DNA from: a virus
DNA: 64,000 nucleotides
Virus record (IMG/VR): IMGVR_UViG_3300028883_000033
Span: 83,645 to 147,644 of that record
Reading direction: 5' to 3' (one strand)
The notes under the pieces: model-generated
The model's database searches: none
Told to the model about the DNA's origin: nothing
The model's input: only the letters and a program-made list of their open reading frames with translations
Made by a program: the position numbers and the translations under genes
Shown here: positions 6,324 to 60,350 of the stretch, piece by piece
Numbering within the stretch: the first letter of the stretch is position 1
Layout of the letters: each line of letters opens with the position of its first letter

Positions 6324-6944
6324 TTATAGGCCCTTAAACCACGAGTGGTAATCGCCAGGAAATTGCGAAGGATCATAAAGATACGGCAGTTTTGTTGCCA
6401 TGTGGATACGTGCTTGGAACAGGTCGCCGGAAAGGACCGTCGTTGACGCATTAATAAAATGAGGTCCACTTGGATATACGATCAGAGTTCCACGTTGGGG
6501 GTTGAACCCAAAACCGTGCTGTGGAAATTCCAACTTCCCGCCATAACACTCATATTCGCTATCGAATGGTGGGTTGTCGTTATAGTCGCTAAGAAACAAC
6601 ACGCCAGTAATGTCACGATCTTTTGTTCGTACCCACTTCTTGCGAAGATAATCACTATTCTCGCAAATTGGTTCGGCAGCGACACCAGCGGCAAAGTATT
6701 CGAATTGAATCGTTTCAGTTGCTCGGTACTCCGCCCCGTAATATTCCATCAGGTTAGGAATCAAAGGTTGCAGCCGATTGAAAACAGTCATTTCTGACTC
6801 TTCTCGATATCGGTACATTTTTACTGGATTACCATCCCGATCAAAGTCGGGTGAATAAAAATCGAGGTCATCCACGATCTTCTCACACTGTTTGGGTGAG
6901 AGAAAGTTTTGAATGACATAAAAGGGGGATTTAGCTACTGCCAT
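6324..6944 (-). CDS. 2OG-Fe(II) oxygenase-fold protein (active site looks degenerate)
   Basis: IQNFLSPKQC...RDITGVLFLSD...YGGKLEFP...PQRGTLIVYPS prolyl-4-hydroxylase-like scaffold. Confidence 0.75.
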   Translation of the reverse strand: MAVAKSPFYVIQNFLSPKQCEKIVDDLDFYSPDFDRDGNPVKMYRYREESEMTVFNRLQPLIPNLMEYYGAEYRATETIQFEYFAAGVAAEPICENSDYLRKKWVRTKDRDITGVLFLSDYNDNPPFDSEYECYGGKLEFPQHGFGFNPQRGTLIVYPSGPHFINASTTVLSGDLFQARIHMATKLPYLYDPSQFPGDYHSWFKGL

Positions 6945-39308: not shown

Positions 39309-39351
39309 TATCATTCTCCTGTGTTGATTGTGTGTATTATTTATGGAAAAC

Positions 39352-39378
39352 AAAAGAGGCGCCGAAGCGCCTCTTTTT
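39352..39378 (-). terminator. rho-independent terminator after tmRNA
   Basis: AGAGGCGC-TTCG-GCGCCTCT stem flanked by A/T runs. Confidence 0.85.
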
Positions 39379-39379
39379 A

Positions 39380-39688
39380 CGGTTTGTTAACAAGGCCTAT
39401 TTGCCCCGTACGCGACTGTTTCTTAGGCAGCCATTGCGTAGTCGTAGTAATCGTCGTTTGCGTTTACTTTAATTTGTGCTGATTACGTCAGTCACCTGTC
39501 GATCATCTCGTCTCATCTTCGCCCGCCCCGTCGAAACTGGTTCGGGCCCATCAAAAGTCCTCTCGGCGGTATAAGGAAATGAAATGCTCACATTTCCCCA
39601 GTGTCCGGAGCATCGGAGTAGGACTTTTGGTGGACCCGGCCGGCACTGCCCCGGCGTCCGCAACGTCTCCAACTTGAGTCATCAACGA
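39380..39688 (-). ncRNA. ssrA: two-piece (circularly permuted) tmRNA
   Basis: Acceptor piece ending CGGGTCC-A-CCA (39638-39628) precedes the coding piece starting GGGCCCG (39549); G3:U70 pair; tag ANDDYYDYAMAA* at 39461-39423. Outer ends approximate. Confidence 0.93.
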
Positions 39689-39694
39689 TAGTGT

Positions 39695-39725
39695 TATTTA
39701 TACGCGAACTGCGTTAAAAATTCAA
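39695..39725 (-). promoter_or_regulatory. composite sigma70/late promoter of tmRNA
   Basis: TTGAAT-N17-TATAAATA. Confidence 0.7.
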
Positions 39726-39730
39726 CAGGT

Positions 39731-40087
39731 TCAATATCCGTTGTGGAGGCAAGCTGCTATTTCCTGTATAGCCTCTTCCTCGGCCGCTTCTAGTGAGATT
39801 GGGTCCTCACGGTAAGCATCACGGACGATTCGCTGCATGTCAATATACGTAGCTCGTTTGATCCCTTTTAGGGAATAAGATTCCTTCCAATCCCGTTCAA
39901 GAACTTGTAGAGCCTTTTCTAGTGGAATCTTATCGCGGTATTGTTGTGTGAACAGTACAGCATCTCCTTTGGCGAAACATGCAGGAGGGATGATAATGTT
40001 TCCGTTTTCATCCGTAGGGTACGCAAATACTGTTGAGGTTATTAGCAGTAAACTAGCTAGCGTCCAAATCTTCACTGTACTCTCCAA
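39731..40087 (-). CDS. secreted hypothetical protein
   Basis: Signal peptide ending VFA; start uncertain. Confidence 0.65.
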   Translation of the reverse strand: MESTVKIWTLASLLLITSTVFAYPTDENGNIIIPPACFAKGDAVLFTQQYRDKIPLEKALQVLERDWKESYSLKGIKRATYIDMQRIVRDAYREDPISLEAAEEEAIQEIAACLHNGY

Positions 40088-49777: not shown

Positions 49778-51736
49778 TCAGTTATGCTTACGATAGCGCA
49801 TGTACCATTCGACCAGCAAGCGAACTTGCTTCTTCGTGTAGCCCTTCGACATCATACGTGATACGAACTCGTTGTGTTTCTTCTCTTCATCTTCCGTCTG
49901 CTTCTTGCTGAACGAAATGACTGGGAGCAGATCTTCGGTGTTCGCGAACATCTTCTTCTCGATGACCTCACGCAACTTCTCATAGCCAGTCCAATCAGGA
50001 CTCTTACCGCCATTGTCAGCGCGGAAGCGGATGACGTAACCGACAACTTCGTTTCGGAAGTCTTTCGGGTTGCCGATACCAGCAGCTTTTTCGATCTTTT
50101 CCAACTCACTGTTCAGTGAATCGCGATCAAACATCTCGCCAGTATCTGGATCGCGGTAATCCTTATCCTGCAGCCAGAAGTCGGCGTACATGATGTAACG
50201 ATCGAACAGGTTCTGGCCATACTCGTGATATGACTCGAGGTACGCTTTCTGCAATTCATCACCAAGGAACTCAGCAAAATCTGGTGCCAGGATTCCCTTG
50301 ATAAACGAGATTCGCTTTTCCTCTTCTTCGGAACCTAACTCTTCGTGTTTCAGAGTCTTCTCGAGGATGTGCATCAAGTGAATTGGGTTTGCGGCCAGTT
50401 CACTTGGATCGTAGTTGTATACCTTCGACAGGATCTTGAATGCGAAGCGAGTGGATGAACCATTCATCCCTTCGCGAACCCCAGCGTCTTCGCGGTACTC
50501 CTCAAGCGACTTCGCTTTTGGATCTTTATCTTTCAGGTTCTTGCCGTCATAGATTTCCATCTTTGAGAACAGGCTGCTGTTGTCAGGCTCGACGAGACGT
50601 GACAGAACTGAGAAACGAGCCATCATTTCCAGCGTTCCTGGTGCGCATGGGGCCTCAGACAGTTCGCTGTTTGCAATCAGCTTCTCGTAGATTTTCACCT
50701 CATCAGAAACACGAAGGCAGTAAGGGACCTTGATGATGTTAACACGATCGAGGAACGCTTCGTTGTCTTTGTTGTTGCGGAACTTCGTCCATTCAGACTC
50801 GTTTGAGTGAGCCAGAATAACACCCTGGAAAGGCATTGCTCCAAAGCCAGATTCGGTACCGTTGTAGTGACCTTCCTGTGTGGCGGTCAACAGTGGGTGC
50901 AACATCTTGATGGGAGCTTTGAACATCTCAACGAACTCCATCACGCCCTGAGTTGCGATATTCAGACCACCGGAGAAACCATATGCGTCAGGATCATGCT
51001 GGTCATACTCTTCCAGCATGCGGATATTGACTTTACCGACCAGGCTGGAAATGTCCTGGTTGTTTTCATCACCAGGTTCAACCTTTGTAATACCAACCTG
51101 TTTAAGGATGTCGGGCCACATTTTGACGACTTTGAATTTACTCAGATCGCCTTCAGCCTCTTCCATACGCTGGACGGCCCATGGCGAAATGATGTACTTC
51201 AGGTAGCGACGAGGAATACCATACTGCTCCTCGATTTCAGGACCATCTTCATCTGGATCGAACAACCCAAGAGGAGACTCATAGATAGGAGAAATTTCCC
51301 ATTTGTCGGTCCTGGCATTATATGCCTTCAGTACATAGATAGGAACACGCTGCATCAGCTGCTTCAGCCTTTCTGACAGAGACGATTTACCACCACCAAC
51401 AGGGCCCAAAAGGTAGAGAACCTGCTTGGATTCCTCCAAGCCCTGAGCAGCGTGTTTAAAAAATGATACGATTTGCTCAATCGTTTCTTCCGCACCATAA
51501 AAATCCCCAAATGCTTGTGGGTAAATTTTGATTTTGCGGTTAGAAAAGATTCGACTGAGACGGTCATCTCTGCGGGTGTCGATCACTTCTGGCTCTCCAA
51601 TTGCCATCAACATACGCTCTGCAGCGTTGGCATAGAAGCCCCGATCTTCTTTACATCCTTCGAGGTATTCCTCAATGGACATTTCTTCCGCTTGGTACCG
51701 TTCGTACCGATTTTGGTATTTCGAAAAAATACTCAT
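49778..51736 (-). CDS. yeaG: PrkA/YeaG AAA+ serine protein kinase
   Basis: KQVLYLLGPVGGGKSS, EPGDENNQDISSLVGKV, EFVEMFKAPIK.LHPLLTATQE, AHSNESEW. Confidence 0.97.
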   Translation of the reverse strand: MSIFSKYQNRYERYQAEEMSIEEYLEGCKEDRGFYANAAERMLMAIGEPEVIDTRRDDRLSRIFSNRKIKIYPQAFGDFYGAEETIEQIVSFFKHAAQGLEESKQVLYLLGPVGGGKSSLSERLKQLMQRVPIYVLKAYNARTDKWEISPIYESPLGLFDPDEDGPEIEEQYGIPRRYLKYIISPWAVQRMEEAEGDLSKFKVVKMWPDILKQVGITKVEPGDENNQDISSLVGKVNIRMLEEYDQHDPDAYGFSGGLNIATQGVMEFVEMFKAPIKMLHPLLTATQEGHYNGTESGFGAMPFQGVILAHSNESEWTKFRNNKDNEAFLDRVNIIKVPYCLRVSDEVKIYEKLIANSELSEAPCAPGTLEMMARFSVLSRLVEPDNSSLFSKMEIYDGKNLKDKDPKAKSLEEYREDAGVREGMNGSSTRFAFKILSKVYNYDPSELAANPIHLMHILEKTLKHEELGSEEEEKRISFIKGILAPDFAEFLGDELQKAYLESYHEYGQNLFDRYIMYADFWLQDKDYRDPDTGEMFDRDSLNSELEKIEKAAGIGNPKDFRNEVVGYVIRFRADNGGKSPDWTGYEKLREVIEKKMFANTEDLLPVISFSKKQTEDEEKKHNEFVSRMMSKGYTKKQVRLLVEWYMRYRKHN

Positions 51737-53024: not shown

Positions 53025-53591
53025 TTATGATTTGTTCAGTTGTGCTTTAATTGATTCAAGATTGTGGCGCTGTTTCTTTTGAGCTTTACGAATCTTTTTC
53101 TTGATTCTATTCTCCTTGAACCAGGACGAACCGTCAACGAATACCTTGCCTTTAAGGTGATCGATTTCGTGCAAAATAGCGAATGCGTATAAGTCACGAA
53201 ACTCGACAGTGTGCTCTTCACCAGTAGTGTCTTTAAACTTCACGACTATAAAATTAGGACGTTTACGTTTTTCGAAATACCCAGGAACGGATAAACACCC
53301 TTCTTCCCATTCAAACTCTTCTTCGCTAACTTCAACCACTTCGGGGTTGATCAGAGCGAGAGGATTTGAGTTCTCAAGTCGGATAACCAGCACGTTGCTA
53401 AGTTCACCAATCTGAGGCGCAGCCATACCCACACCTTCATTTGCAACCATTGTTACAAACATATCAGCGACGAGGTGTTCTAGGTCTTCGTTGAAGTCGA
53501 CAATATCATGACATTCCACATGCAACCCATCATCGGGCCATACGAGAATGTCGCGGATTTGGGGGGTATATTTTTCTTTTGTAGTATCCAT
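53025..53591 (-). CDS. def: peptide deformylase
   Basis: GVGMAAPQIG, EGCLSVPG, HEIDHLKG; ATG 53591. Confidence 0.96.
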   Translation of the reverse strand: MDTTKEKYTPQIRDILVWPDDGLHVECHDIVDFNEDLEHLVADMFVTMVANEGVGMAAPQIGELSNVLVIRLENSNPLALINPEVVEVSEEEFEWEEGCLSVPGYFEKRKRPNFIVVKFKDTTGEEHTVEFRDLYAFAILHEIDHLKGKVFVDGSSWFKENRIKKKIRKAQKKQRHNLESIKAQLNKS

Positions 53592-53638
53592 ATTATCTCT
53601 TTTATATTGAAAACGGCCCACCGGAGTGGGCCGTTACG

Positions 53639-54223
53639 TTACGCCAATAACAGGCGGCTTTCTTTTGGAACCTGCTTCATCAGAAATTCCATCTGGTCTG
53701 CCAGAATCCTACGATTCCTCAGAATCAGATATTCAGCACGGTTTGGCACGTATGGCACAAACAGCAACTGCATTCCTGCTTCTTCAGGCGTACGGTCGTC
53801 CTTATGCTTGTTGCAGTGGTGGCAAGCAGTAACGACGTTCATCCAAGTGTTTGGACCGCCACGAGATACAGGCAGGATATGATCACGTGACAACTCATGT
53901 GACGCAAAGGTATTCCCGCAGTAACCACACACGTGCTGATCGCGACGGAACAATGTGTCGTTTGTCAGCGGGACGCGATTCATCTGCTCAAGCTGCTTTG
54001 AGTTCACTTTGCCTTTGATCGCGATGATTGTATCCATGGTTAGCGTGGACTGTTCACCTGTCATGCGTGACGTTCCGCCGTGCAAAGTGAAGTCCTCCGC
54101 TTGCATTGACCATGCAACCAGATCTTTTGTGTAGTAGTATGCTGCTTTCTCGTGCGTAATCCACGTGTGTGGGTTACCGGCAACGTCCAGCTGCAACACG
54201 AGTGGTAATTCCCTCATTTTCAT
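53639..54223 (-). CDS. HNH endonuclease (McrA-like)
   Basis: RRDQHVCGYCG...DHILPVSRGG..W.NVVTACHHCN. Confidence 0.92.
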   Translation of the reverse strand: MKMRELPLVLQLDVAGNPHTWITHEKAAYYYTKDLVAWSMQAEDFTLHGGTSRMTGEQSTLTMDTIIAIKGKVNSKQLEQMNRVPLTNDTLFRRDQHVCGYCGNTFASHELSRDHILPVSRGGPNTWMNVVTACHHCNKHKDDRTPEEAGMQLLFVPYVPNRAEYLILRNRRILADQMEFLMKQVPKESRLLLA

Positions 54224-54312: not shown

Positions 54313-54708
54313 TTACTCGTAAAGGTCTGCGATATCTACCGGTTCGTGGGGTTTGGGTTCTTCATAATCTTCCAACCAGAATTCATACTCTTCGAAGTTA
54401 TCGTAAACCTTCTGAACCACTTCCCGCCAGATATCATACCGCCCAGCAACCTGCCGAGCAATATACTCACATTGATCGACCCTAGGCATGCAATCCTGGC
54501 ATGCGCAGAAGTCCGGGTAATCCTCCCAATCATTTTCCCAATATACCTTTCGATGGTCCCGACATGCATCCTTCCCGCAGAAGCTGCATCTCATGATTCG
54601 AGATGTCCCGCAACATCCTGAGTTATGGTCAGTTTGTGTGTCGCAGAAGTCACACTTCCATGTGGTGACTTCTTTCTCGACCATAACCTTTCTCTTGGTT
54701 ATGCTCAT
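54313..54708 (-). CDS. Cys-rich (zinc-finger-like) hypothetical protein
   Basis: CDFC, CSFC, CRDH, CQDC. Confidence 0.75.
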   Translation of the reverse strand: MSITKRKVMVEKEVTTWKCDFCDTQTDHNSGCCGTSRIMRCSFCGKDACRDHRKVYWENDWEDYPDFCACQDCMPRVDQCEYIARQVAGRYDIWREVVQKVYDNFEEYEFWLEDYEEPKPHEPVDIADLYE

Positions 54709-55160
54709 GCGACCTCTCCTTCGAACTTTGCTTTTAGTTCGAGGTACTTCTTGCGCTCACGCTCTTCATTTTCACGCTTGCGCCTAGCAGCTGCTTCTTC
54801 AGCCTTGCGTTTCTTTTCTTCTTCCATTTTACGAATCTTCTCTTTGACATCGTCGAGATAATTCTCATCGAAGAAGTAAGACAGGGGAATGTCAATTCCG
54901 TGTGTTTCCCATTCACTACACCCGAGATACTCTTCATATTCGGCTGTAATACTTCCATTCTCGAACGAGATTTCCTCACTGTCAATTGAGTACTTGCCAC
55001 CCTTGAGCTTAACCATCGCTGTAGCGATTTCAGCTGCACGTTCCTGAAGTTGTTGAATAATCTCTAGCAGTTCATACAACTCGTTGGCATTGTTAAATTC
55101 GAGAGTGATTGGTTTGACCTTAATGCCTTGGTAGTCATCACCAGTGCTCTGAAGTTTCAT
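54705..55160 (-). CDS. hypothetical protein
   Basis: 151 aa with coiled-coil C-terminus, ATGA overlaps. Confidence 0.75.
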   Translation of the reverse strand: MKLQSTGDDYQGIKVKPITLEFNNANELYELLEIIQQLQERAAEIATAMVKLKGGKYSIDSEEISFENGSITAEYEEYLGCSEWETHGIDIPLSYFFDENYLDDVKEKIRKMEEEKKRKAEEAAARRKRENEERERKKYLELKAKFEGEVA

Positions 55161-55639
55161 GCTGCGTCCTCCACATCCAGCGCAAAGAGCTCAGCGAACG
55201 TATTTGGACGCGCTCCATTAAGGATTTTCTTCTTCAGACGCAGCCCCTGACCATAGTCTGCCCAGAGGGTTTCAACCTTCTCAACCTCGATCCACTGAAG
55301 GTCGTCTACAACCAGGGTTCCTTCGAATGGCGCAATGAAGTCATTGACCCAGCCCTGCCTAAAATCATTGACCCAGCCTTCGCTTACCATGCGGCTAGAC
55401 CAGTCAGCAATCCTCATGTACTCATTGACAGCGTCGACGAATCCGTGATTCAGACGAGTTCCGTTATTCAGTTTGTTGTGGTTCGTAACAGGCGTGAAGC
55501 CGTGGTCCAGATCCTTACCGCGAATGGCATTATACATTACCATATGTGCTGCAGTAATTTTACCAGCCTGAGCAGCTTTAGCCCATGCGTTACGGAATGC
55601 GATGAATTGTTCTTTAGTTTCGAAATATTTGGTAGTCAT
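55157..55639 (-). CDS. hypothetical protein
   Basis: ATG 55639 with AGGAG SD; internal GWVNDF duplication. Confidence 0.75.
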   Translation of the reverse strand: MTTKYFETKEQFIAFRNAWAKAAQAGKITAAHMVMYNAIRGKDLDHGFTPVTNHNKLNNGTRLNHGFVDAVNEYMRIADWSSRMVSEGWVNDFRQGWVNDFIAPFEGTLVVDDLQWIEVEKVETLWADYGQGLRLKKKILNGARPNTFAELFALDVEDAA

Positions 55640-55766
55640 TGTAATCTCCTTGAGTAATAAAGTTATTTCGTTTGAAAAGTGAGGTTCAAACGTTCTCAAG
55701 GAGGTCCACGGGCGTGGATCTACCAGAATGGGAGCTTAGTTATCTACAAGCCAGGTTTTACGTCTT

Positions 55767-56054
55767 TCATATGCCTTTCTCAATTAACACAGTGAATTTA
55801 TCACCAATATTTAGCGACGTGCCGCAAAAGAAGGAAAGTTTTTTGTTATCTTCGCGTTGAGCGATGTAAAAACCAACCTTACCAGTTCCAGTACATCTAT
55901 CTAGTTCATACCTATCAGTACTTAGGATCACAGTCATTTCGACTATTTCCTCGCCAATCCTGAGGTCACGAGCTTCCGCTGGTGAGTAGATCAGACTGTC
56001 GGCAGTAACAATAGTACTTATACTTAGCAACAATGTCAACAAAAATACTCTCAT
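55767..56054 (-). CDS. secreted hypothetical protein
   Basis: Signal peptide; TAAATA 5 nt before the ATG. Confidence 0.7.
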   Translation of the reverse strand: MRVFLLTLLLSISTIVTADSLIYSPAEARDLRIGEEIVEMTVILSTDRYELDRCTGTGKVGFYIAQREDNKKLSFFCGTSLNIGDKFTVLIEKGI

Positions 56055-56071
56055 TGGAGTATTTAGGGTGT

Positions 56072-56147
56072 TGGTGCCCCGTGCAGGAATCGAACCCGCG
56101 ACACAGAGATTTAGAGTCTCCTGTTCTAACCGCTGAACTAACGGGGC
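56072..56147 (-). tRNA. amber-suppressor tRNA, anticodon CUA
   Basis: GCCCCGT-TA-GTTC-AGCGGTTA-GAAC-A-GGAGA-CT-CTA-AA-TCTCT-GTGTC-GCGGG-TTCGATT-CCTGC-ACGGGGC-A-CCA; canonical 76-nt cloverleaf. Confidence 0.93.
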
Positions 56148-56423
56148 CTAACTTGAATAATGCCACGATCCATCATCGTTCGTATACACTTCAACGGCCT
56201 TATCGTACAACATATTTGCTGCCTGAGCAGGCGTCAACTTATTGTGATAGCACGTATTAATGATGGTTTTGAAATCAATGGCCGCAACTTCTGCCGGACG
56301 CAGCGGAACGCCTTTTTTGATCAAAAAAGCCACAACGTCCTCTTTATAATCCCACGAACGGTGGTCAACGTGACCAATATTGCGAGGATTGTTAGGGTTG
56401 GTTAGATTGGATGAAGTTGCCAT
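56148..56423 (-). CDS. hypothetical protein ending in TAG abutting the tRNA
   Basis: ATG 56423 (MATSSNL); stop TAG at 56150-56148. Confidence 0.65.
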   Translation of the reverse strand: MATSSNLTNPNNPRNIGHVDHRSWDYKEDVVAFLIKKGVPLRPAEVAAIDFKTIINTCYHNKLTPAQAANMLYDKAVEVYTNDDGSWHYSS

Positions 56424-56459
56424 AATGGGTATTATCCCAAAATGGGTGGGTGATGGCAA

Positions 56460-56624
56460 CTAGTCGTCGGACTTATCGCACCCGCGTTTGAAAATGCAGC
56501 ATTTGAAGGAGCATGCTTTTTGGCATACGGCCATCAATAGAACGACGGCAGCAGAAATACCTGCCCAGCCACCAAGTAATATCGTTCCGCTGTCAAAACT
56601 GGCAGCCGTTTCAATACCAAACAT
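56460..56624 (-). CDS. small membrane protein with Cys-rich tail (54 aa)
   Basis: Manual translation MFGIETAASFDSGTILLGGWAGISAAVVLLMAVCQKACSFKCCIFKRGCDKSDD, TAG stop; GGGAG SD; TAAATA at 56663-56668. Confidence 0.65.
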   Translation of the reverse strand: MFGIETAASFDSGTILLGGWAGISAAVVLLMAVCQKACSFKCCIFKRGCDKSDD

Positions 56625-56696
56625 TTTAGTTCTCCCGTAAATCAGTAGATGGTAATATCCACTATTTACGCGGAAAAGACAACGGAAAAAATTTCC

Positions 56697-56966
56697 CTAC
56701 TGGTTCGGGCATTTATCCTGCCAAGTTTCCAACTTGTATTTGTAATACTCAGAGGTTGGGTCCTCTCTAACCTTATCTCTGTACCATTTGAGCTTAGTTC
56801 CACAGCGGTCTTGCTGTTCTTCTTGGATCTTCTGATATTGTTCTTTTTCAATGCGCAGCTCGTACACATTATCCCACCAATCTTTAACCCAAGTATCAGT
56901 TCCACCATCCATGGCGAAAGCGGTAGGTGCAAACATCAAAACAATGATTATTGATATTCTTTCCAT
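56697..56966 (-). CDS. secreted hypothetical protein
   Basis: Signal peptide ending AFA, two Cys; TAG stop. Confidence 0.7.
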   Translation of the reverse strand: MERISIIIVLMFAPTAFAMDGGTDTWVKDWWDNVYELRIEKEQYQKIQEEQQDRCGTKLKWYRDKVREDPTSEYYKYKLETWQDKCPNQ

Positions 56967-58480: not shown

Positions 58481-58557
58481 TGGTCGGAGTGGAGGGATTC
58501 GAACCCCCGACCCACTGCTCCCAAAGCAGTTGCGCTACCAAGCTGCGCTACACTCCG
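58481..58557 (-). tRNA. tRNA-Pro(UGG)
   Basis: CGGAGTG...ACTGC-TT-TGG-GA-GCAGT...TTCGAAT...CACTCCG-A-CCA; TAAATA 8 nt upstream. Confidence 0.96.
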
Positions 58558-58568
58558 AGTATGAGTAT

Positions 58569-58784
58569 TTAGTGTTGTTTGGAGGGCAATTGGCCTTCTT
58601 GTGACTGTCGTTGCGCACGCTTTTTGGCAGCAGCACGTTCGCGTTTGCGCAGAGCACTTGGTTTTTCGTAGAATTCGTGTTTACGAAAATCCTGCATAGT
58701 ATTTGCTTTCTCTACCGATTTCTTCCATCGGCGCATTAGGCTTTCAAATTTTTCGTGGGCGTGTTTCAGGGTTACTCGTGGCAT
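58569..58784 (-). CDS. rpsU: ribosomal protein bS21
   Basis: FESLMRRWKKSVEK...RKHEFYEKPS..RKR..AAAKKR. Confidence 0.93.
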   Translation of the reverse strand: MPRVTLKHAHEKFESLMRRWKKSVEKANTMQDFRKHEFYEKPSALRKRERAAAKKRAQRQSQEGQLPSKQH

Positions 58785-58850: not shown

Positions 58851-60350
58851 TTACTCAGCCCGGATAGCGGCGTACCGCTCCTGGTTGAGCACTTCCAGCA
58901 TGAGATCATACGCGCTGGTTGCCTTGTTAGACAACAGGCTCGTGAAGATGCTTGGGGAGCATCCACTCACCAACTGGAAGCCGCGCTGGTCCATAGACAT
59001 TGGCTGCTGGTCGTTACGGGAATCAACGTTCCAGAATACCAGGAATGGCATTTTGTAACCAGCCTCAGTGTAACGACGCTCGATTGTCTGGAACAGACGC
59101 TCGTCAACGTTGCCACGAGAGTGCCAGCCGTCACCAGTTGCTGCATCGAATTCCATGTCGGAGACGATGTACAGGTGAGTTGGTAGCTCGTCCTGAGACG
59201 CACCAGTTTTCTGTGCTGTCTTCAAAATCAAGTTGAATACAGCTTCAATGTCGGTGTTCATATCCCAGGCAGCGCGAGAAAGGTTACGAACCTTTTCTGC
59301 AATGTCGCTGCCCTCAACCGTCTGAAGGGTTGGGCGTGCGCTGAAGGTAATGAACTTACCAGCAAACGGACCACTGTTACGCTCTGCAGTGTAAATGGCC
59401 AGAGAGATAGACACGTCCATTGGACGGCCACTCATAGAGCCAGATACGTCTGCTACTACGAGACCACGAACTTCGTTGTCGCCAAAGTAGTTAGGCAGTG
59501 CGTTCCACATTGCATCCAAAGATGCGTCATCCGCGCTTTTACCGCGGCCATAACCATAGCCACCGCACTTTTCAACGATCTCGTATGGGTACAGGGTACC
59601 CGCGTTGATCGTCTTCGTACCAGACTTAACTTCCTCCAGGAAGTGAGCGTAACGCTCTGCATCGTGGCGGTAGAAAGCCTTACGGTACTGCAAGCCTGCT
59701 TTTGAAGGCAGCTTGTCATACTGGATTTCACTCCAGTTGTTTTCAGAAATTGTCTGCTCCACCAGCCCGATCTTTGAACGGATCGCAGACAGAGTCTTAC
59801 GATACTGACGTGGGCTCATGTTTAGAGCCTGACGGGTCTTACGGCCATAGCGCTTGGTGGTAGAAGAACTTGCGTTCTCACTAGCCAGCCACTTCGCGAG
59901 CAGAGACGGATTGTCACTGTTCATGTCTTCAGCGAGCTGAACGTCGATCACAGTGAACATATCTTCTTCCAGATCGGTATCGATCAAGGAATACAGGTCG
60001 TCCCAGCGACCATACTCTGCAATCAAAGGCAGATTGGCGCGGACAACTTCCGGACGGTTTACCGCAAGGTGGTTCAACAGGATACGGAACGTACGACGCT
60101 CGCCCTGACCACCGCGGATATCCCGGAAATAGAACATGGCCTTTGTGGCCAGCAGAGGGTTCTCTGCATATGCCTTCTCGAATACGTTGACGATGCTGGA
60201 CTCATCGCGTGAACGCAAAGCTCCACCATTGGCGAAGAAGTCCAGAACGGAGCTATTCGTTGAAGCGAAAGCTACCGCACCATTTTCCGTGAACGCAACG
60301 TTGCCGTCGCCGTTCATTGTGGTTTCCAATTCATCAAGATAATTTACCAT
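58851..60350 (-). CDS. DUF2828 / TROVE(Ro60)-like protein with vWA domain
   Basis: TENGA, RDIRGGQGER, YGRWDD, LAKW, LYPYEI, VADVSGSM (MIDAS), FITFS, SDMEFD, FWNV. Confidence 0.88.
   Translation of the reverse strand: MVNYLDELETTMNGDGNVAFTENGAVAFASTNSSVLDFFANGGALRSRDESSIVNVFEKAYAENPLLATKAMFYFRDIRGGQGERRTFRILLNHLAVNRPEVVRANLPLIAEYGRWDDLYSLIDTDLEEDMFTVIDVQLAEDMNSDNPSLLAKWLASENASSSTTKRYGRKTRQALNMSPRQYRKTLSAIRSKIGLVEQTISENNWSEIQYDKLPSKAGLQYRKAFYRHDAERYAHFLEEVKSGTKTINAGTLYPYEIVEKCGGYGYGRGKSADDASLDAMWNALPNYFGDNEVRGLVVADVSGSMSGRPMDVSISLAIYTAERNSGPFAGKFITFSARPTLQTVEGSDIAEKVRNLSRAAWDMNTDIEAVFNLILKTAQKTGASQDELPTHLYIVSDMEFDAATGDGWHSRGNVDERLFQTIERRYTEAGYKMPFLVFWNVDSRNDQQPMSMDQRGFQLVSGCSPSIFTSLLSNKATSAYDLMLEVLNQERYAAIRAE

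Follow-up and report, generated by a model that had tools for sequence, protein, structure and literature searches.

A candidate UAG-gated RGPP leader next to a conserved amber-suppressor tRNA in a large standard-code phage

The DNA described here is a stretch of 64,000 nucleotides (the window), which forms the 3' part of an IMG/VR virus record of 147,644 bp judged to be 43% complete (IMGVR_UViG_3300028883_000033). Its minus strand holds a gene for an amber-suppressor tRNA, tRNA(CUA), among four small genes that we call g1 to g4. Directly after g4 comes a short leader open reading frame (ORF) with two in-frame UAG codons and the C-terminal residues RGPP, followed by a gene designated gene X. 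The reading that we somewhat favor is that g1 to g4 are separate small genes around a conserved suppressor tRNA, and that the downstream leader is gated by its UAG codons and opens gene X. A preliminary description of this DNA had centered on a 400-codon frame that runs through g1 to g4 and the tRNA, and the leader, which would be a previously unpublished kind of suppressor-dependent leader, lies just outside those coordinates. The general idea of a suppressor-gated element is thus retained in the form of the leader at 55770-55696, conserved in eight of nine loci, while the frame made up of g1 to g4 does not bear it out.

The leader, the suppressor tRNA and gene X

Relatives were collected with an anchor, a 333-amino-acid (aa) protein encoded 1.3 kb upstream of the locus, for which ~15 homologues were found in Logan, ENA, JGI and NCBI assemblies. 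Eight syntenic loci found via this anchor and a g3 homologue (L010-L015, L018 and L019) form the comparison set, with the window as the ninth locus. The leader came to light when the non-coding stretch that follows g4 was aligned with L010 and L018 and the conserved block was read with TAG open. The elements concerned, including the Shine-Dalgarno (SD) sequence of gene X, are as follows:

56072-56147, minus strand: tRNA(CUA), amber suppressor, class I, with A73 and an encoded CCA, identified by ARAGORN, Rfam (66.8 bits) and a minimum free energy (MFE) cloverleaf
55696-55770, minus strand: leader ORF, MKDVKPGL-UAG-ITKLPFW-UAG-IHARGPP-UGA, 25 codons, with its ATG overlapping the g4 stop
55746-55744, minus strand: first leader UAG
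55722-55720, minus strand: second leader UAG
55710-55699, minus strand: RGPP codons of the leader
55646-55704, minus strand: anti-SD CCUCCUUGAG (55704-55695), an internal hairpin, and the SD of the next gene, CUCAAGGAG (55654-55646)
55157-55639, minus strand: gene X, 160 aa, phrog_22448, the putative gated gene, overlapping the start of the next gene (54705-55160)

The leader, whose frame differs from the 400-codon frame, is present in the window, L010 to L015 and L018; the L019 contig ends too early. Both leader TAGs are invariant in all eight of these loci, and the spacer between them, of 4, 6, 7, 8 or 9 codons, keeps them in frame every time. In the 12 core codons, the variable columns number 1, 2 and 6 at the first, second and third codon positions, so that change is mostly third-position, and the motifs LPFW and V/I-H-(RS)-R-G/A-P-P are kept. 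The leader ends on RGPP in six loci and on RAPP in two (L011 and L015), with the stop codon directly after in 7/8. The leader is the only place in the 147.6-kb record where a stop codon directly follows RGPP or RAPP. When stop identity and frame were compared between loci, both were conserved in the leader and were not conserved in the 400-codon frame. We take the alignment as comparative evidence that the leader frame is read across its stops.

The segment CCUCCUUGAG, which comprises the G-P-P-stop codons of the leader, is the complement of CUCAAGGAG in the SD region of gene X (ATG at 55639). Single-sequence MFE folding of the window gave -35.8 kcal/mol (z -3.9), with anti-SD and SD paired around the internal hairpin; the L013 sequence gave -37.1 kcal/mol (z -3.5), with the start codon paired too. 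The helix was also recovered by RNAalifold with one compensatory pair, where a TGA to TAA change of the leader stop in L011 is matched by a CTCAAGG to CTTAAGG change.

The tRNA(CUA) has a canonical cloverleaf with the CUA anticodon within a 7-nucleotide (nt) loop, and the sequences nearest to it are a phage tRNA-Met(CAU) (84% identity) and the E. coli tRNA-Phe (75% identity). It is syntenic in the eight relatives, downstream of the anchor gene. In an alignment of seven copies, 98.6% of cells are paired, compensatory change occurs in 11 of 21 pairs, and the anticodon loop CTCTAAA is invariant. Because of this synteny, covariation and invariant anticodon loop, the suppressor can be regarded as a maintained gene of the clade. 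The L019 copy apparently has an enlarged anticodon loop. At several loci (L015:5640-5649, L018:2151-2160, and also L042 and L090) upstream ORFs enter the tRNA(CUA) by 10 nt and stop on its T8-A9-G10, the next in-frame stop being a UAA at tRNA nucleotides 35-37, in the anticodon loop. Transcripts of this kind would lose their stop codon upon RNase P cleavage.

An AlphaFold2 model of gene X is all-helical, with a predicted local distance difference test score of 87.6. Comparison with the PDB gave no convincing match (Foldseek E > 1; VIA-align best Z 3.8). Several of the weak VIA-align rows are ribosomal protein bL17, at Z 2.5-3.8, far below significance. Downstream of the putative gated genes, on the same strand at window positions 53025-54223, are HNH endonuclease and peptide deformylase genes, which are kept in relatives.

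Outside the clade, a degenerate pattern of the leader family had no match in IMG/VR. We also surveyed 80 IMG/VR loci holding a tRNA(CUA) with a relaxed UAG + R[AGDS]PP leader pattern. This returned 3 matches vs. 1-2 in TGA/TAA controls, and therefore does not confirm a wide occurrence of such leaders. One surveyed locus, L076:1137-1330 (minus strand), from an unrelated IMG/VR phage, has a tRNA(CUA) and, 20 nt further on, the leader MRNKQL-UAG-QVRGPP-UAA; a hairpin and an SD lie between this leader and a gene that begins MKNFKTIFKTKAQ. With a suppressor tRNA, a UAG/RGPP leader, a hairpin and an SD in the same order, the logic of the leader recurs there with a different sequence; homology of the following gene to gene X was not established. 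In the full-text literature, we found no published natural UAG-gated arrest leader beside a phage suppressor tRNA.

The long frame in the window and in related loci

Translation agrees with the preliminary description of the long frame. One minus-strand frame, 56966-55767, spans 400 codons with three TAGs and without TAA or TGA before its terminal TGA, and is laid out as 89 aa-TAG, 24 codons, 54 aa-TAG, 12 codons, 91 aa-TAG, 31 codons, and 95 aa-TGA. The third TAG (56150-56148) adjoins nucleotide 1 of the tRNA(CUA), and the 31 open codons span the tRNA gene. The other pieces of the frame are:

56697-56966, minus strand: g1, an 89-aa secreted-type small protein with an N-terminal signal-like segment and two Cys, ending in TAG
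56663-56668, minus strand: TAAATA late-promoter-like motif in the g1-g2 linker, followed by the g2 SD GGGAGA
56460-56624, minus strand: g2, a 54-aa single-pass membrane protein with a Cys-/Lys-rich tail, ending in TAG
56431-56459, minus strand: sigma70-like promoter, TTGCCA-17-TGnGATAAT, filling the g2-g3 linker and ending 7 nt before the g3 ATG
56148-56423, minus strand: g3, a 91-aa soluble protein of a small phage family, whose TAG adjoins the tRNA
56060-56065, minus strand: TAAATA late-promoter-like motif, 12 nt before the g4 ATG
55767-56054, minus strand: g4, a 95-aa protein with a signal peptide, whose TGA overlaps the leader ATG (ATGA)

The g1 start overlaps the stop of an upstream 147-aa membrane/coiled-coil gene. 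Pfam and PHROG hold no family for g1, and searches of Pfam, PHROGs and the ESM Atlas with g1 to g4 returned nothing usable, every Atlas score being <0.9. A profile search with g3 gave 78 representatives, 75 of which are stand-alone proteins of 66-116 aa, almost all of 80-100 aa.

That these are independent genes with promoters of their own, as had been suggested for two of them, also agrees with our analysis: g2 and g4 are each preceded by TAAATA, and g3 by the sigma70-like promoter. Within 60 nt upstream of ORFs, TAAATA shows an 18.5-fold enrichment (38/150 genes vs. 2.1 expected); its total count in the window is not above chance, so the signal is positional. The motif fits a T4-like late promoter core (TATAAATA-like, concentrated upstream of genes), to judge from its sequence and placement, and TAAATAC.TC.AAT is kept after the tRNA in L018 and L019. 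Promoters equivalent to that of g3 are found in L010 (TTGCCC-17-GATAGT-6-ATG, 1967-2008), L018 (TTGAAC-16-TATAAT-8-ATG, 1840-1878) and L013 (TTGTAT-17-TATACT-7-ATG, 6804-6848). Across these three loci and the window the -10 box ends 6-8 nt before the ATG of the g3-family gene, a distance that implies a leaderless mRNA. This suggests that the g3-tRNA transcript is leaderless, and that such mRNAs continue into the tRNA in three genomes. The g1-g2 linker is just 12 nt in L010. Since the linkers hold promoters and an SD, they are regulatory DNA.

How improbable is the long frame? A run of at least three TAG-ended genes anywhere in the record has P = 0.055, and the three genes directly upstream of the tRNA are all TAG-ended with P = 3.7e-4 in 200,000 label shuffles. 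Adjacent same-strand genes are joined in frame by an open linker in 20/120 cases. The naive joint chance of the whole pattern is ~1e-6, a post hoc figure. As these chance figures are post hoc, an independent test was sought in relatives.

The preliminary description had proposed checking whether the frame and the TAG identity are conserved near suppressor tRNAs in related phages. In the eight related loci they are not:

L010: g1 ends in TAA, g2 in TAG and g3 in TAA, 1 nt before the tRNA; no g4
L018: g1 ends in TAA, g2 in TGA and g3 on the tRNA's own T8-A9-G10; g4 is truncated to 35 aa
L011, L013: TAA 6 nt before the tRNA
L012, L014: TGA 74-78 nt before the tRNA

Homologues of g1 are present in all relatives, with a TAG stop in L012, L013 and L014 and a TAA stop in L010, L011, L018 and L019. 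The g2 homologues stop on TAG in L010, TGA in L018, and TAA in L011 and L019, and the g3 homologues on TAA in L010, the tRNA-internal TAG in L018, and TGA in L012 to L014. Homologues of g4 lie 3' of the tRNA in L012 and L013, the L010 and L018 loci being as listed. In L018, the g1 frame differs from that of g2 and g3, and an in-frame TAA lies inside the g2-g3 linker. On the contig with the closest anchor homologue (68% identity), gene coordinates alone place g1, g2 and g3 in three different frames. A TAG excess among the three genes upstream of the tRNA in the relatives was not significant (5/24 vs. 10/108, p = 0.11). In the wider survey, ORFs abutting tRNA(CUA) are TAG-ended in 3/23 cases vs. 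12/44 for other tRNAs, which is no excess, and a long TAA/TGA-free frame with at least two TAGs ending at the tRNA(CUA) was seen in 0/48 survey loci.

Searches beyond the comparison set returned little. A further locus, L016, has no tRNA(CUA) in the 5.9 kb available, nor have L003 to L008, found via a DUF2828 protein, in 17.5 kb each. There were no matches to the locus or anchor among GenBank phages by megablast and tblastn, and none to the exact tRNA pattern in IMG/VR. The anchor protein gave no further relatives beyond one contig in IMG/VR, JGI metagenomes and GTDB.

Because stops and frames differ in relatives, the linkers hold promoters and the survey shows no TAG excess, four independent small genes most likely make up the long frame through a juxtaposition particular to this lineage. 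Several observations weigh against the overall reading of separate genes and a gated leader. The anti-SD pairing is weaker in L012, L014 and L015, by RNAalifold and by eye, and the covariation is thin, the sequences being similar. The leader has no hydrophobic, signal or membrane segment, and thus lacks the features of a secretion-monitoring peptide. For the long frame, the naive chance given above makes coincidence uncomfortable. Among the relatives alone, the gene just before the tRNA is TAG-ended in 3/8 loci vs. 12/124 genes elsewhere (p = 0.047), two of these three TAGs being the tRNA's own. The distant member L019 (4077-4756) has two consecutive in-frame TAG-ended genes, of 138 aa and of 62 aa (a zinc ribbon), which are not homologous to g2 and g3; the second TAG overlaps nucleotide 1 of the tRNA(CUA), and no stop interrupts the next 29 codons, which cross the tRNA. 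The g2-TAG-g3 junction is in frame and open in both the window and L010. Finally, P0033, a single 232-aa ORF on a Logan contig of 1,115 bp, joins homologues of g1 and g3 through a 21-aa linker. The g3 part of P0033 keeps its own Met, and the junction may hold either a sense codon or a read-through stop.

Some of these observations would be expected of programmed read-through fusions, where the suppressor would let part of the translation yield g1-g2-g3(-g4) polyproteins with a separate role. The improbability of the pattern in this genome, the open g2-TAG-g3 junction of two loci and the P0033 ORF all speak for such fusions, as do the L013 locus, where the g1 TAG is followed by 96 open codons across the g3 homologue, and the TAG at the end of g1, kept in 4/8 genomes. 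The order of signal, membrane and soluble segments, seen in translation, is also topologically coherent: g1 would be periplasmic, g2 would provide a membrane helix, g3 would be cytoplasmic, and the g4 signal would act as a second helix ahead of a periplasmic g4. Against fusions stand the TAA of g1, the TGA of g2, the in-frame linker TAA and the shifted g1 frame in L018, the TAA codons ending g1 and g3 in L010, and the three frames on the contig with the closest anchor homologue. The linkers are promoters and vary in length and sequence, g3 would be periplasmic in P0033 and cytoplasmic in the window, and nearly the whole g3 family (75/78) is stand-alone. With TAA and TGA stops, frame shifts, an in-frame TAA and loss of g4 among the relatives, the proposal in the preliminary description that g1 to g4 form read-through fusions finds no support as a conserved design, and we consider functional fusions unlikely.

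The other mechanism proposed there was a feedback loop, with read-through ribosomes entering the pre-tRNA and limiting its maturation. When the suppressor is abundant, such ribosomes would unfold the pre-tRNA and block RNase P processing. The geometry that this calls for does exist: a TAG adjoins or overlaps tRNA nucleotide 1 in the window and L019, with the frame open across the whole tRNA in both. The upstream ORF stops within 10 nt of the tRNA 5' end in 7/9 loci, and its stop is TAG in 4/9. Set against this, the remaining 5/9 have TAA or TGA as the stop of that ORF, and two of the four TAGs are merely the tRNA's T8-A9-G10, followed by TAA at nucleotides 35-37. The survey shows no TAG excess before tRNA(CUA) over other tRNAs, and the tRNA-Pro of this phage is tightly packed too, 11 nt after a TAA. 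As most relatives have TAA or TGA before the tRNA, a feedback loop has no support as a conserved design either, and autoregulation of the suppressor seems to us quite unlikely. Our preferred reading of the long frame is a by-product specific to this lineage, which leaves a modest chance that it has a local function.

Genetic code and genomic setting

The record is a fragment of a large phage that uses the standard code. Over the whole record, coding density is 0.954 with code 11 vs. 0.953 with TAG as sense. The preliminary estimate that about 10 of roughly 85 genes here end in TAG is close to our recount of 10/~88 ORF-genes in the window; the 147.6-kb record has 11-12/~150. The distance from the TAG to the next in-frame stop is 78, 103 and 126 codons for g1, g2 and g3, and 0-18 codons for all other TAG-ended genes in the record. 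The preliminary description had noted a TAA or TGA within 15 codons for six of the others. Across 147.6 kb there is no internal TAG in bona fide genes, and the present locus is the sole multi-gene TAG frame. A TAG-linked ORF pair at 554-1348 of the genome was rejected as an antisense artefact of a collagen-like gene. This minus-strand gene, outside the window at C1:1-1450 of the genome, has GPQ repeats and runs off the contig start, and the plus-strand ORFs there, one of them TAG-ended, are antisense artefacts.

If TAG were a sense codon in this phage, as in code 15, the 400 codons could be one gene or a recoded block. The frame is indeed open with TAG as sense, and the phage does carry a tRNA(CUA). 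However, the frame encloses a tRNA gene, and every segment comes with a start, a promoter and a signal sequence of its own. Reading TAG as sense does not raise coding density, internal TAGs are absent from all other genes in the 147.6 kb, and relatives carry the segments as separate genes that stop on TAA or TGA. Recoding is already contradicted by these data, and we give it almost no credence.

The record encodes only two tRNAs, the CUA suppressor and tRNA-Pro(UGG). The latter, at 58481-58557, directly follows a bS21 gene (58569-58784, minus strand), and TAAATA precedes each of them. The Pro codons of the leader's RGPP motif are CCU. Searches of the 147.6-kb fragment for a release factor (PF00472, RF-1) and a Gln/Glu tRNA synthetase (PF00749) found neither, and the PTH2 family was likewise not found in the record. 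At window positions 39351-39738 (minus strand) lies a permuted (two-piece) phage transfer-messenger RNA, scored by Rfam at 127.6 bits with tmRNA_permuted and 110.2 bits with beta_tmRNA, which was not called by ARAGORN. Other genes of the window include a PrkA/YeaG-type kinase gene and a DUF2828/DUF7788 (TROVE-like vWA) gene, at 49778-51736 and 58851-60350 (both minus strand). Among phages, the kinase has its nearest relatives in, for example, Enterobacter phage LAU1, uncultured phages of 0.6 Mb, and Ralstonia phage RsoM2USA.

A proposed read-through switch and its known counterparts

We propose that this locus serves a large standard-code phage as its suppressor-tRNA module, in which g1 to g4 would encode small secreted, membrane and soluble proteins. 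Each of the four would be a separate gene with its own start and promoter, packed around the clade-conserved tRNA(CUA). When the tRNA is active, some g1-g2, g2-g3 and g3-(tRNA-encoded linker)-g4 fusions would form, as by-products rather than as a conserved device; APLVQRLEQETLNLCVAGSIPAR is an example of the linker peptides to be expected of such fusions, beside those of the g1-g2 and g2-g3 linkers.

The regulated step would lie in the leader. Without suppression, ribosomes would end at the first leader UAG, and the gene X SD would stay paired with the last codons of the leader. With active tRNA(CUA), ribosomes would read both UAGs, reach RGPP and pause over the anti-SD, so that the SD is freed. 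Gene X would then be translated, probably together with the following gene, whose start is overlapped by the gene X stop. Among arrest motifs of this class, RAPP and RGPP act most robustly, and EF-P does not relieve their arrest (PMC12992588). From this robust arrest, together with the UAG-containing leader and the predicted SD pairing, we infer a read-through-gated arrest at RGPP that would unmask the SD.

A more inclusive possibility is that the whole 1.3-kb stretch is one amber-read-through relay controlling its own tRNA and the downstream operon. Read-through of the g1-g3 UAGs and of the tRNA precursor would then damp tRNA maturation, ribosomes would pass into g4 and, via the ATGA overlap, to the two-UAG RGPP leader opening gene X, and the independent two-TAG frame at the L019 tRNA would be a second instance. 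We regard such a relay as very unlikely.

Many standard-code phages carry suppressor tRNAs without a known target. The proposed leader would give the tRNA(CUA) of this clade a concrete, conserved target and a testable mechanism. If the proposal is correct, it would represent a natural switch, built on a known arrest motif, with stop-codon read-through as its input and downstream translation as its output. The locus also illustrates that local accident can give rise to a striking read-through frame, and that a comparative test of stops and frame can separate both cases at one locus.

Programmed stop-codon read-through produces, for instance, the Q-beta A1 coat extension and retroviral gag-pol, and in such systems stop identity, frame and extension coding are conserved. 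The long frame resembles these in that in-frame continuation past a leaky stop would give C-terminally extended products. It differs from them in that neither stop identity, frame nor extension is conserved for g1 to g4.

In code-15 phages (crAss-like, Lak and others), TAG is read as Gln with the phages' own suppressor tRNAs (10.1101/2021.08.26.457843; PMC9523058). The present phage shares with them a phage-encoded tRNA(CUA), the rarity of TAG as a stop, and the idea of suppression as a timer for the expression of a set of genes. Unlike in those phages, the code here is standard, the UAGs of interest lie in one short regulatory leader rather than in structural or lysis genes, and searches of the fragment yielded neither a release factor nor a Gln/Glu tRNA synthetase gene. 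The gating of amber-bearing genes by a suppressor tRNA also exists in synthetic form (PMC7969014). There, as proposed here, expression occurs only when the suppressor tRNA decodes UAG; the present system would be natural, and would work via a leader and SD unmasking rather than via UAGs inside the target gene.

The closest counterparts are the arrest leader peptides that end in RAPP or RGPP, namely ApdA, ApdP, ApcA, and the RGPP/RAPP leaders of Streptomyces lividans, which are related to the RAG-P of SecM (PMC7897499, PMC10951233, PMC12992588). Like them, the leader described here is a short ORF that ends in R-G/A-P-P just upstream of the putatively regulated gene, and its arrest site lies over a sequence predicted to pair with the downstream ribosome-binding site. 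In contrast to them, it is phage-encoded, lies beside a tRNA(CUA) and contains no signal or membrane segment. Its arrest is a prediction, two UAGs would have to be read before the arrest motif is reached, and the input sensed would be suppressor-tRNA activity, not protein export.

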